Positions 2 to 13,791 of a stretch of 64,000 bases of DNA are shown here, piece after piece (the first letter of the stretch is position 1; each line of letters begins with the position of its first letter). Location of the stretch: the NCBI RefSeq assembly GCF_030013205.1, contig NZ_CP122648.1. One strand, given 5' to 3'. The position numbers were made by a program, and so were the translations under genes. The DNA comes from Escherichia coli (GTDB lineage Bacteria > Pseudomonadota > Gammaproteobacteria > Enterobacterales > Enterobacteriaceae). The notes below the pieces were generated by a model. That model saw only the letters and a program-made list of their open reading frames with translations. It was not told where the DNA came from and did no database searches.

Positions 2-1417
<1,416 letters not shown>

Positions 1418-1425
1418 CAGAAAAG

Positions 1426-1498
1426 AAAAAGGCCACTCGTGAGTGGCCAAAATTTCATCTCTGAATTCAGGGATGATGATAACAAATGCGCGTCTTTC
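1426..1498 (-). ncRNA. micA: MicA (SraD) small RNA, antisense regulator of ompA/phoPQ mRNAs
   Basis: Minus-strand sequence reads GAAAGACGCGCATTTGTTATCATCATCCCTGAATTCAGAGATGAAATTTTGGCCACTCACGAGTGGCCTTTTT, which I recognise as MicA; sits in the gshA-luxS intergenic region with a terminal hairpin plus U-tract. Confidence 0.8.
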
Positions 1499-1566: not shown

Positions 1567-2082
1567 ATGCCGTTGTTAGATAGCTTCACAGTCGATCATA
1601 CCCGGATGGAAGCGCCTGCAGTTCGGGTGGCGAAAACAATGAACACCCCGCATGGCGACGCAATCACCGTGTTCGATCTGCGCTTCTGCGTGCCGAACAA
1701 AGAAGTGATGCCAGAAAGAGGGATCCATACCCTGGAGCACCTGTTTGCTGGTTTTATGCGTAACCATCTTAACGGTAATGGTGTAGAGATTATCGATATC
1801 TCGCCAATGGGCTGCCGCACCGGTTTTTATATGAGTCTGATTGGTACGCCAGATGAGCAGCGTGTTGCTGATGCCTGGAAAGCGGCAATGGAAGACGTGC
1901 TGAAAGTGCAGGATCAGAATCAGATCCCGGAACTGAACGTCTACCAGTGTGGCACTTACCAGATGCACTCGTTGCAGGAAGCGCAGGATATTGCGCGTAG
2001 CATTCTGGAACGTGACGTGCGCATCAACAGCAACGAAGAACTGGCGCTGCCGAAAGAGAAGTTGCAGGAACTGCACATCTAG
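1567..2082 (+). CDS. luxS: S-ribosylhomocysteine lyase (autoinducer-2 synthase)
   Basis: 171 aa ORF with the LuxS metal-binding HTLEH motif; conserved position next to gshA. Confidence 0.97.
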
Positions 2083-2139
2083 TCAGTAAACTATCTTCAC
2101 AATTAATTGAAAAAAGCCAGTTCAAATGAACTGGCTTAG

Positions 2140-2822
2140 TTGTGCACAGAAAACCCCCAGCTAGGCTGGGGGTTCCGGAAAGCTTTCAGCTTTGAGCCAG
2201 TTATTAAAACCCCTTTTGATTTGTTAAAACACCTTGCGGTCTGGCAACTGCAAGTGTCAAACAAGAAATCAAAAGGGGGTCCCAATGGGGAACGAAAAGA
2301 GCTTAGCGCACACCCGATGGAACTGTAAATATCACATAGTTTTTGCGCCAAAATACCGAAGACAAGTGTTCTACAGAGAGAAGCGTAGAGCAATAGGCAG
2401 TATTTTGAGAAAGCTGTGTGAGTGGAAAAGCGTACGGATTCTGGAAGCTGAATGCTGTGCAGATCATATCCATATGCTTGTGGAGATCCCGCCCAAAATG
2501 AGCGTATCCGGCTTTATGGGATATCTGAAAGGGAAAAGCAGTCTGATGCTTTACGAGCAGTTTGGTGATTTGAAATTCAAATACAGGAACAGAGAGTTCT
2601 GGTGCAGAGGGTACTACGTCGATACGGTGGGTAAGAACACGGCGAAGATACAGGATTACATAAAGCACCAGCTTGAAGAGGATAAAATGGGAGAGCAGTT
2701 ATCGATTCCCTATCCGGGCAGCCCGTTTACGGGCCGTAAGTAACGAAGTTGGATGCAAATGTCAGATCGTGTGCGCCTGTTAGGGCGCGGCTGGTAAGAG
2801 AGCCTTATAGGCGCATTTGAAA
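2140..2822 (+). mobile_element. IS200-family insertion sequence (boundaries approximate)
   Basis: Left-end hairpin AAACCCCCAGCTAGGCTGGGGGTT, then a second stem-loop (CCCCTTTTGATTT…AAATCAAAAGGGGG) that sequesters the RBS, then an IS200 tnpA; lies between luxS and emrB, where I recall no IS in K-12. Confidence 0.7.
2285..2743 (+). CDS. tnpA: IS200/IS605-family Y1 transposase TnpA
   Basis: 152 aa from MGNEKSLAHTRWNCKYHIVFAPKYRR… with the HIHMLVEIPP HuH motif; near-identical to remembered IS200 TnpA. Confidence 0.9.
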   Translation: MGNEKSLAHTRWNCKYHIVFAPKYRRQVFYREKRRAIGSILRKLCEWKSVRILEAECCADHIHMLVEIPPKMSVSGFMGYLKGKSSLMLYEQFGDLKFKYRNREFWCRGYYVDTVGKNTAKIQDYIKHQLEEDKMGEQLSIPYPGSPFTGRK

Positions 2823-2848
2823 AACCTCCGGCTATGCCGGAGGATATT
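2822..2848 (-). terminator. Putative rho-independent terminator downstream of emrB
   Basis: Minus-strand hairpin CCTCCGGCATAGCCGGAGG followed by a T-run immediately after the emrB stop. Confidence 0.5.
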
Positions 2849-2857
2849 TATTTGTAC

Positions 2858-4396
2858 TTAGTGCGCACCACCTCCGCCGCCACCTGCGCCAAATGGCGGT
2901 TTAGCAAACCACACCAGCCCCAGCAAGACGAGGAATATCCCGGCTGACATCCAGAAGATCTCATTGGCGGAAATAATCAGCCCCTGATTGGTGATCTGCT
3001 GGGCAATCCAGCCTGATGCCTGCTGTTGCGTCATTCCCAGTCCTTCCAGTTGACTGTACATCGCCTGGGCATTCGGGTTGAACGGGTTTACCGACTCGGT
3101 TAACTGTGCGTGGTGCATCGACTCGCGGTTGGTCCACATGGTAGTGGTGATGGATGTGCCGATAGACCCCGCCAGCGTACGCGTAAAGTTGGAGAGGCTC
3201 GATGCCGCCGCCAGTCGTTCCGGTGGCAAACCAGACAGCGTAATGGTGGTCAGCGGCATAAAGAAGCAGGCCACTGCGAAGCCCTGGATAAACTGCGGCC
3301 AGGCCGACGCACCAAAATCCATACCAGGTTCAAAGGTATAGGCACGCCAGTAAAAGCAGACGGCATACATAATAAAGCTGAAGGTTACCAGCCGCCGCAT
3401 ATCCAGTTTATGCGCGAAGCGGCCGATAATCGGCGACAGGATCACCGGAATAATCCCTACCGGCGCAGAGGCCAAACCTGCCCACGTTGCCGTGTAACCG
3501 TAGACCTCCTGCAACAACTGCGGCAGCAGAACAATCGCGCCGAAGTAGAGCATATACGCGAGGCTGATACACAAGCAGCCGATGGTGAAGTTGCGCGACT
3601 TAAACAACGACAGATCGACTATCGGGTTATCGTCGGTCAGCTCCCAGACAATCAGGAAGCAGATAGCCACCACTGCCACCACGGTAAGGATGATAATTTC
3701 CTGTGATGAAAACCAGTCCAGCTCTTTACCGCGGTCGAGCATAATCTGCAGGCTACCGATACCAATAACCAGCAGTGCCAGCCCCACGGCATCAATCCGC
3801 CGCCGTTCGGTGCGGGTTTCACGTCCGCGCAGGGTTTGCAGTGTCATCAACACCACCGCCACGCCAATCGGTACGTTGATGAAGAATATCCAGCCCCAGT
3901 GGTAATTGTCACTGATATACCCGCCGAGGATCGGGCCGCAAATTGGCGCGACAATCACCGTCATCGACCATAACGCCAGCGCGATCGAGCGTTTGGCTGG
4001 CGGGTAGTTATTCAGCAATAGACTTTGCGAAAGCGGAATTAACGGCCCGGCGACAATCCCCTGAATCACGCGGAAGAAGATCAGCATATTCAGGCTGCTG
4101 GAGACACCACACGCCCACGACGCAATAGCAAAGGCGATGGTGGACCAGAGGAACAGTTTCACTTCCCCGACGCGCTTTGCCAGCCAGCCGGTAAGCGGGA
4201 TCGAGATGGCATTCGCCACCCCGAAAGAAGTGATTACCCACGTTCCCTGGCTGAGCGATGAGCCCAGATTCCCGGCGATAGTGGGGATCGCCACGTTAGC
4301 AATGGTGGAGTCCAGCACCTGCATGAATGTCGCCAGTGACAGCGCAATCGTCATAATGACCAGTTGCGCGCCTTCCAGCGGTTTTTGCTGTTGCAT
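2858..4396 (-). CDS. emrB: Multidrug efflux MFS transporter EmrB
   Basis: 512 aa from MQQQKPLEGAQLVIMTIALSLATF…, 14-TMS MFS; ORF track extends 3 codons upstream. Confidence 0.95.
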   Translation of the reverse strand: MQQQKPLEGAQLVIMTIALSLATFMQVLDSTIANVAIPTIAGNLGSSLSQGTWVITSFGVANAISIPLTGWLAKRVGEVKLFLWSTIAFAIASWACGVSSSLNMLIFFRVIQGIVAGPLIPLSQSLLLNNYPPAKRSIALALWSMTVIVAPICGPILGGYISDNYHWGWIFFINVPIGVAVVLMTLQTLRGRETRTERRRIDAVGLALLVIGIGSLQIMLDRGKELDWFSSQEIIILTVVAVVAICFLIVWELTDDNPIVDLSLFKSRNFTIGCLCISLAYMLYFGAIVLLPQLLQEVYGYTATWAGLASAPVGIIPVILSPIIGRFAHKLDMRRLVTFSFIMYAVCFYWRAYTFEPGMDFGASAWPQFIQGFAVACFFMPLTTITLSGLPPERLAAASSLSNFTRTLAGSIGTSITTTMWTNRESMHHAQLTESVNPFNPNAQAMYSQLEGLGMTQQQASGWIAQQITNQGLIISANEIFWMSAGIFLVLLGLVWFAKPPFGAGGGGGGAH

Positions 4397-4412
4397 CACA
4401 CGCACCTCTGGA

Positions 4413-11271: not shown

Positions 11272-12466
11272 TATTTACCCCCTCACGATCTAAAGCGCGC
11301 AGCAGCATTCCTTTCGAAATGATGCCGACATACTGTTGGTCCTCATCGACCACGGGCACCGCACAGGGGGCCTGTCCGACATGAGAGAGCAACTCGCTAA
11401 GAGGCGTTTGTGCATCGACCGCTAACGGCGCATCAATCAGCGCCGCATCAAGACCTTGCTGCTGCGTTAACGCGGCTTTAAGCGAATCGATAGACACAGC
11501 GCCGACAAACTTATTACCGCGTTCGATGACGTAGCCATATTCGCGATCTTCATCCTGCAATAATTTCAGTGCCGAACGCGGGCCGAAGCCGGGGGTTTTA
11601 CGAATTAAGCCGTTCGGTGTACGACGGGCAATATCTTTCGCACTGAACACCTGGCTAATATCGACGCCACGGAAGAAGGTACGGACATAATCATTCGCCG
11701 GATTATTGAGAATTTCATCCGGTGTGCCGACCTGTACCACTTCACCATTTTGCATAATGGCAATTCGGTCGCCAATACGCATGGCTTCATCGAGATCGTG
11801 GGAAATAAAGACAATGGTGCGCTGATGTTTCGCCTGTAATTTTACCAGCTCATCCTGCATCTCGGTGCGAATTAATGGATCGAGTGCTGAGAAGGCTTCG
11901 TCCATTAATAATATATCCGGATTAATCGCTAACGCGCGGGCTAATCCCACACGTTGACGCATCCCGCCAGAGAGTTCATCCGGGTAGCTGTGGGCATAAT
12001 TTTCCAGCCCGACCTGACGCAGTGCATCAAGGGCTTTTTCCCGGCGTTCTTCGGCATTAATTCCGGCCAATTCCATACCGAATGCAGTATTGTCCAGCAC
12101 GGTCATATGCGGCATTAAGGCAAAGGACTGGAAGACCATCGCAATCTTTTTTCTGCGCACCTCACGGAGTTCGGCGTCGGATATTTTGGCAATATCCACA
12201 CCATCAATCAGCACTTGCCCGCGGGTGGGTTCAATCAGGCGATTGAGAAGGCGTACCATTGTGGATTTACCCGAACCGGATAATCCCATGATGACAAATA
12301 TCTCGCCTTCTTCAATGGCCAGACTGGCGTCTTTTACGCCAAGCGATAGCCCAGTTTTTTCCAGAATTTGTTCTTTTGAAAGTCCTTGTTCGATATATTT
12401 GAAAGCTCGCTGTGGATGCTCACCAAATATTTTATAAAGATTTTTAATTTCTAATTTAATTGCCAT
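11264..12466 (-). CDS. proV: Glycine betaine/proline ABC transporter ATPase
   Basis: 400 aa; Walker [13 protein letters not shown] signature LSGGMRQR, C-terminal CBS domains. Confidence 0.95.
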
Positions 12467-12822
12467 GCAATAGAAAGATTCCTGTTATTTGTTTATGTCG
12501 ATACATTACCCAATGGAAATAGTCACTTTTTTCTACCCTAACATACTGAGAATCTGAGGCAACCCCTGATGGCAAATGTGGCATGAATATTGATGTGAGC
12601 AAATCGCCGGAATTTCCCATGATATAAGGGCTGAGAGCAAATCGAGAAAAGTTGATATTTTTTGTCAAAGATAGCAAAAAAACGCCTGAATATTGTGGTT
12701 TCAGGCGAATAATGCAACAGAGTGTCAGTGTAGATCACCACAAAATATTTGCGTGATAAAAAGCTATTTGGCGGGAATTATTTCCCTGCTGCGGGTAGTG
12801 ATATTTTTGAAAAATAACACCC
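12467..12822 (-). promoter_or_regulatory. proU (proVWX) osmoregulated promoter region
   Basis: AT-rich curved DNA upstream of proV; position matches the known H-NS-silenced proU control region (individual sites not mapped). Confidence 0.5.

Positions 12823-13791
<969 letters not shown>

Follow-up and report, generated by a model that had tools for sequence, protein, structure and literature searches.

The window analysed here is a stretch of 64,000 nucleotides of Escherichia coli DNA (RefSeq assembly GCF_030013205.1, contig NZ_CP122648.1). The luxS locus near its beginning comprises the following genes:

53..1417, + strand: gshA
1498..1427, - strand: micA, an sRNA gene (Rfam, 83.9 bits) located between gshA and luxS in a K-12-like arrangement
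1567..2082, + strand: luxS (Pfam LuxS, E=1.6e-59; K-12 annotation), the left neighbour of the spacer ORF tnpA and co-oriented with it
2858..4405, - strand: emrB (Pfam MFS_1; K-12 and RefSeq annotation), the right neighbour, convergent with tnpA

Downstream of luxS, a 775-bp spacer is followed by emrB and then by emrA and emrR. In K-12 MG1655, the luxS-emrB spacer measures 63 bp, with one hairpin. The window carries the same 63 bp plus 712 additional bases (net insertion), and only one ORF in the spacer, located at 2285..2743 (+) and encoding 152 aa, has protein-family matches. An earlier note on this DNA had proposed that an IS200-family element is inserted between luxS and emrB. This was borne out: The K-12 site is empty, and at the luxS-emrB junction RefSeq annotates WP_000526135.1 as "IS200/IS605-like element IS200C family transposase", by which similarity to IS200 is documented. 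The opposite view, that the region is core sequence present in all E. coli, fails because the K-12 site is empty and the junction is limited to 19 of 5426 complete genomes. A search for further IS200C copies within the window yielded none besides the element at 2142..2852. An Rfam match to SNORA57 within emrA (E=0.76) was discarded as noise.

Between luxS and emrB, the following features were delineated:

2114..2137, no strand assigned: native hairpin AAGCCAGTTC-AAAT-GAACTGGCTT, the terminator common to luxS (+) and emrB (-), unchanged in K-12 (DNA fold)
2142..2852, + strand: complete IS200C element of 711 bp, GTGCACAG…GGATATTTATT (K-12 comparison and ten other insertion sites)
2152..2174, no strand assigned: IS left-end hairpin AACCCCCAGC-TAG-GCTGGGGGTT (fold; first helix of the Rfam STnc490 model)
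2205..2294, - strand: predicted antisense sRNA art200, ~90 nt (position transferred from Ellis 2015, PMC4513863)
2210..2278, + strand: 5'UTR stem-loop hiding the ribosome-binding site (RNA fold, -40.4 kcal/mol, z=-3.92)
2285..2743, + strand: tnpA, encoding a 152-aa HUH/Y1 transposase with H61-I-H63 and the catalytic Y125 (Pfam, NCBIfam, motif positions)
2825..2843, no strand assigned: IS right-end subterminal hairpin CCTCCGGC-TAT-GCCGGAGG (fold; invariant in 11 copies, absent from K-12)
2853..2853, + strand: additional T at the right junction compared to the K-12 empty site (occupied cttagtt[IS]tgtactta, K-12 cttagttgtactta)

The identity of the element rests on its transposase. TnpA matches Pfam PF01797 (Y1_Tnp, "Transposase IS200 like") with E=3.8e-38 and 130.7 bits (cutoff 23) as well as the NCBIfam equivalog NF033573 (transpos_IS200) with 147.7 bits (cutoff 55), which confirms the previous assignment as an IS200-type tnpA. 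Its nearest PDB relatives are the IS200-like proteins 2ec2 and 2f5g from Sulfolobus, 2a6m and 2vhg from IS608 and 2xm3 from ISDra2. Neither a frameshift nor a loss of the HUH/Tyr residues was found in tnpA. Exchange of the catalytic tyrosine, Y125F, yields the catalytically dead TnpA mutant used by Ellis (Ellis 2015, PMC4513863). The coding content of the element is confined to tnpA, the sole ORF matching a family; tnpB is lacking, and the length of 711 bp fits the ~0.7-kb IS200 class. A weak match to the NCBIfam model REP_Tyr_transpos (32.2 bits) could point to a RAYT gene (REP-associated tyrosine transposase), a domesticated relative that is not an insertion sequence. This score is, however, far below the family cutoff of 80 and contrasts with the 147.7 bits for transpos_IS200. 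Moreover, the element is multi-copy and has IS200 ends, and none of the 11 aligned copies shows REP sequences in its flanks, so that the probability of a RAYT gene is negligible. The segment 2142..2852 is almost certainly an intact, probably still mobile IS200C element belonging to the IS200 group of the IS200/IS605 family. The name IS200C, the ISfinder name used by NCBI PGAP, rests on RefSeq PGAP labels of identical proteins and copies as proxy for the ISfinder reference. Nothing was found against this identification: Size class, single tnpA and subterminal hairpins agree with E. coli IS200C, and nothing substantive differs. The element as such was known before; what is specific to certain strains is its position at luxS-emrB. 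Annotating it is routine work on mobile elements, and PGAP has already done so for this junction in 19 complete genomes.

For the mapping of the ends, ten copies were fetched and, together with the window copy, aligned at both junctions, yielding 11 independent sites. Nine of the fetched copies are located at distinct other loci, downstream of galU, pgm, htpX, tkt, yiaY, ompX, wzzB, plaP and a hypothetical gene (Nissle-type strains). The tenth is an IS200C element in the luxS-emrB spacer in the opposite orientation. The block 2140..2852, TTGTGCACAG…GGATATTTATT, is invariant across the 11 sites, and its leading TT (2140..2141) corresponds at every one of them to a host T-run. Comparison with K-12 revealed exact 711-bp insertions, GTGCACAG…GGATATTTATT, without a duplicated base between galU and hns, between htpX and yebQ and on the emrB side of the luxS-emrB spacer. 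The element is assigned to 2142..2852 because of the invariant block, the exact 711-bp insertions and the alignment with Yersinia pestis IS1541 including its tandem junctions. Whereas the start proposed in the earlier note (2140) is correct to within 2 nt, the right end is not 2822 but 2852, ~30 nt further. A check for a target duplication had been suggested there, too: At the three sites compared with K-12, no real duplication is found, and the window copy has one additional T. This T at 2853 may stem from a 1-nt duplication of the target or from a polymorphism between strains. The comparison at ompX is blurred, since the length of the T-run at the empty site varies between strains. Terminal inverted repeats are absent: Neither tip, GTGCACAG or TATTTATT, is repeated in inverted form at the opposite end, and the subterminal hairpins at the left end (2152..2174) and at the right end (2825..2843) are unrelated in sequence.

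Three strong hairpins are present in the spacer, and only that at 2114..2137 is derived from the host. On the + strand, it is followed by AGTT (2138..2141), and it constitutes the target structure of the insertion. It is flanked by A6 on one side and by TTAGTT on the other. Read on the - strand, it is the canonical emrB terminator with the tail TTTTCAATTA (terminator-like score), while the + strand serves luxS. The IS200C copy has landed directly 3' of the T-containing tail of this luxS/emrB terminator hairpin, in the orientation of luxS. The insertion altered neither the luxS hairpin nor the initial 9 nt of the tail behind it. Two structural statements of the earlier note agree with this arrangement: The element lies just downstream of the luxS terminator, i.e. 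directly after the hairpin 2114..2137, and it has a terminator-like left-end hairpin, which the fold places at 2152..2174. By contrast, the supposed emrB terminator of the earlier note, to the right of the element, is a hairpin (2825..2843) that K-12 lacks and that belongs to the right end of the IS itself. The native emrB terminator is the luxS hairpin 2114..2137, which is now located across the IS, 712 bp further away from emrB. For annotation, the corrected coordinates 2142..2852 and the single host-derived spacer hairpin 2114..2137 can be used.

The right-end hairpin is followed by the tail ATATTTATT (2844..2852), which closes the element. It is terminator-like on both strands. With its - strand tail TTTTTCAAAT, it represents a strong terminator-like site 15 nt past the emrB stop codon. 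As judged from these letters, the right-end hairpin with its T5 run is probably an IS-borne replacement intrinsic terminator for emrB in the window strain. Transcription of emrB would lose direct access to the native terminator and, 15 nt after the stop codon, meet the IS right-end hairpin plus T5. The effect of the insertion on both luxS and emrB is, as we infer, probably near-neutral.

The 5' region of the element resembles that of Salmonella IS200, where the left-end hairpin (nt 12-34) acts as a bidirectional terminator, shielding tnpA from transcription that reads in from outside, and nt 69-138 form a stem-loop sequestering the Shine-Dalgarno sequence (Ellis 2015, PMC4513863). The counterpart of the latter is the stem-loop at 2210..2278. 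It pairs CCCCUUUUGAUUU with AAAUCAAAAGGGG and thereby buries the Shine-Dalgarno sequence AAGGGGGU in the fold (-40.4 kcal/mol, z=-3.92). None of 200 shuffled sequences folds as well. The RBS-sequestering stem-loop of the earlier note is thus present, and its remark that the IS200 5' UTR carries an antisense RNA agrees with Ellis 2015 (PMC4513863). The 5' ends of art200 were mapped to IS200 nt 153/154 in the same work, in which STnc490/art200 is described as antisense. With IS200 nt 1 set at 2141, these 5' ends correspond to 2293/2294 (-). A putative -35 box of art200, TTTACA, can be read from the sequence at 2329..2324, where it is expected. The predicted RNA is complementary to the 5'UTR of tnpA and its first three codons.

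Rfam STnc490 (RF01405) covers 2152..2275 (+) with all 124 model positions and 146.4 bits (gathering score 56). As evidence for art200, this match was rejected: It runs in the sense of tnpA, opposite to art200, and hence documents the conserved structure of the 5'UTR and not the antisense RNA. The left-end terminator hairpin is part of the Rfam model, which appears to describe the 5'UTR of tnpA in sense orientation.

By homology to Salmonella IS200, the left-end hairpin would stop transcription reading in from luxS, the 5'UTR stem-loop would hide the tnpA ribosome-binding site, and art200 would act as a third brake on the tnpA 5' region. With these three elements, tnpA expression would be expected to be very low. 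Apart from the stem-loops, the Shine-Dalgarno sequence AAGGGGGU, Y125 and, by prediction, the art200 start at nt 153/154 are common to both elements, and all these features map consistently onto the window if nt 1 is set to 2141 (positions from Ellis 2015, PMC4513863). The length differs: Salmonella IS200 is quoted with 707 bp (PMC4513863), compared to 711 bp for IS200C in the window.

Regarding mobility, full-length IS200C was found in 2063 of 5426 complete E. coli genomes. It resides on chromosomes as well as plasmids, at many loci and at up to 35 places in a single genome. Earlier work on the Salmonella element is said to include that of Lam & Roth from 1983 and of Beuzon & Casadesus. A 200-bp probe spanning the left junction of the window copy is fully covered in 19 of the 5426 genomes. 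The same 19 records cover the whole spacer and are mostly porcine ETEC/O139:H1, plus MS 69-1. The median number of IS200C places is 1 among genomes with any match, compared to 19-33 in the junction-bearing genomes.

It could be argued that the copy is a dead, immobile IS200 relic kept at luxS-emrB by vertical inheritance. The junction is limited to a few strains, which are related and mostly porcine; this would be in accord with a relic, as would the description of IS200 as almost dormant with a very low transposition frequency (Ellis 2015, PMC4513863). However, the ORF, the catalytic motifs and both ends are intact. Furthermore, bases 2144..2851 are 100% identical (708/708) to the IS200C copy at galU-hns in strain K_EC180, and the 19-33 IS200C places in each junction-bearing genome indicate a recent expansion in the lineage. 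A relic is therefore unlikely. Instead, the data suggest a recent burst of the usually "dormant" IS200C in the mostly porcine ETEC/O139:H1 lineage, with copies at different loci being 100% identical.

How such copies would move can be predicted from family membership (IS608, ISDra2). TnpA is a single-strand HUH/Y1 transposase that would excise one strand as a circle. The excised strand would then insert 3' of a short ssDNA target, mainly on the lagging-strand template and without target duplication. In the IS200/IS605 family, the lagging-strand template is preferred, and transposition proceeds by a single-strand "peel and paste" mechanism (PMC5371812). According to K-12 map positions, luxS is located at 2.81 Mb and co-directional with replication. 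Therefore, assuming no local inversion, the + strand of the window, which is the sense strand of tnpA and carries the hairpin with the T-tail, would be the lagging-strand template. The orientation of the copy would thus match the preference of the family.

In strain PAR and a further 91 genomes (92 of 5426), the same spacer harbours IS200C in the opposite orientation. This PAR-type copy is co-oriented with emrB. It adjoins the T6 run and is thus located on the other side of the native hairpin from the window-type copy; in both cases, the left end of the IS lies against the T-tail on its own strand. The two IS200C alleles share 98.5% identity and encode different proteins, WP_000526113 and WP_000526135. 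A single insertion followed by an inversion might be considered, since, owing to the nearly palindromic hairpin, BLAST aligned positions 31 to 769 of the query in inverted form. Yet the PAR hairpin is oriented as in K-12, with an unchanged asymmetric loop (AAAT) and unchanged flanks (A6 and TTAG), and therefore no inversion has occurred. The PAR IS lies beyond the T6 run, across the hairpin from the window-type copy, and this position as well as the differences between the alleles and their proteins likewise speak against an inversion. In sum, one inverted insertion is highly improbable. The luxS/emrB terminator was hit twice independently by IS200C, once on each side and in opposite orientations. 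These opposite insertions at one hairpin show that orientation is dictated by the strand of the T-tail. The two orientations, present in 19 and 92 of 5426 genomes, respectively, can also serve as strain markers.

The location behind a terminator is not a peculiarity of luxS. In E. coli, the upstream gene at each of the 11 sites is co-oriented with the element, and its canonical intrinsic terminator ends 2-10 nt before the left end. A wider scan was performed with the exact 24-nt left-end hairpin, using one genome per species, and comprised at least 120 loci. The matches listed include Y. pestis IS1541 and elements in Vibrio, Brenneria, Edwardsiella and Pluralibacter. Among the IS200/IS1541 sites listed, a terminator-like hairpin plus T-run abuts the left end at 101 of 129 unique sites, compared to 1.5% of 20,000 random positions. 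This count is based on a strict perfect-stem definition; most of the other 28 sites have imperfect hairpins. On average, the 40 nt immediately preceding the left end have an MFE of -18.2 kcal/mol, versus -7.0 kcal/mol at random positions. In a matched control on the matches listed, terminator-like structures were found at the left end in 46 of 57 cases, but at the right end in only one of 57. The two flanking bases preceding the element are TT at 56 of 57 sites, again among the matches listed.

Odaert et al. are said to have proposed in 1998 that terminator-like stem-loops are hot spots of IS1541. Terminator-like sequences upstream of IS200/IS605 elements have also been reported in a 2025-26 preprint (10.1101/2025.07.22.666184). 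The association with terminators is therefore not claimed here as new.

Y. pestis IS1541 is the closest counterpart for comparison. It shares 87.5% nucleotide identity with the window element over positions 1-711, its left-end hairpin and right-end tail are identical, and it is likewise located directly after terminator-like hairpins. Differences concern the left tip (GTGCCCAG instead of GTGCACAG), the length of 710 bp and the copy number of ~55 or more per genome, with some copies in tandem. Head-to-tail tandems were observed at four Y. pestis loci (e.g. spans 1984..3403 and 11928..13347). There, the left end of one copy comes immediately behind the hairpin and tail at the right end of its neighbour, and the copies abut exactly at the ends that match 2142 and 2852 of the window. 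From these tandem junctions it follows that the right end itself can serve as target.

Two explanations for the terminator association have to be weighed, targeting by the transposase and survival of those insertions that do no harm. The strict position and orientation, which are also observed in the recently expanded Y. pestis IS1541, probably argue for targeting. It is conceivable, though offered tentatively, that IS200-group transposases actively select intrinsic terminators by recognizing an ssDNA GC-rich hairpin with a T-tail ending in TT, and that selection is not the cause. The target structure would then resemble the right end of the element itself, with its hairpin and ATATTTATT, the part that tandem IS1541 copies use as target. 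Once inserted, the element would offer any gene convergent with it a substitute terminator, namely its right-end hairpin. If active selection of terminators applies, it would make the insertion transcriptionally silent and explain the dozens of harmless copies of a "dormant" IS. New in this proposal, if true, are solely the structure-specific recognition and the mimicry of the right end. The luxS-emrB site provides a natural example of IS200-group elements behind terminators and may be helpful for studies on target choice by HUH transposases.

With IS608 and ISDra2, IS200C shares a homologous HUH/Y1 TnpA (2a6m, 2vhg, 2xm3), subterminal hairpins, the lack of inverted repeats and of a target duplication and the insertion 3' of a short target. 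Both, however, encode tnpB and use defined tetra-/pentanucleotide targets (TTAC, TTGAT). In contrast, the target sequence of IS200C is merely a T-run ending in TT, nearly always after a hairpin. Bacterial group IIC introns likewise home 3' of intrinsic terminator hairpins, which keeps the insertion harmless. They are unrelated in mechanism, since they are retroelement ribozymes, whereas IS200C employs an HUH transposase.

Among the matches listed in the wider scan, the exact 24-nt left-end hairpin also occurs in MAGs labelled Mailhella/Desulfovibrio, Oxalobacter, Peptococcaceae, Bacillota, Saccharibacteria and Elusimicrobiaceae. These matches in distant phyla are mostly located at contig ends and have other left tips (GTGAAACGAA, GTATGAAGAA and GGTTAAAAGAA). 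They could reflect either a wide horizontal spread of the element or binning artefacts.
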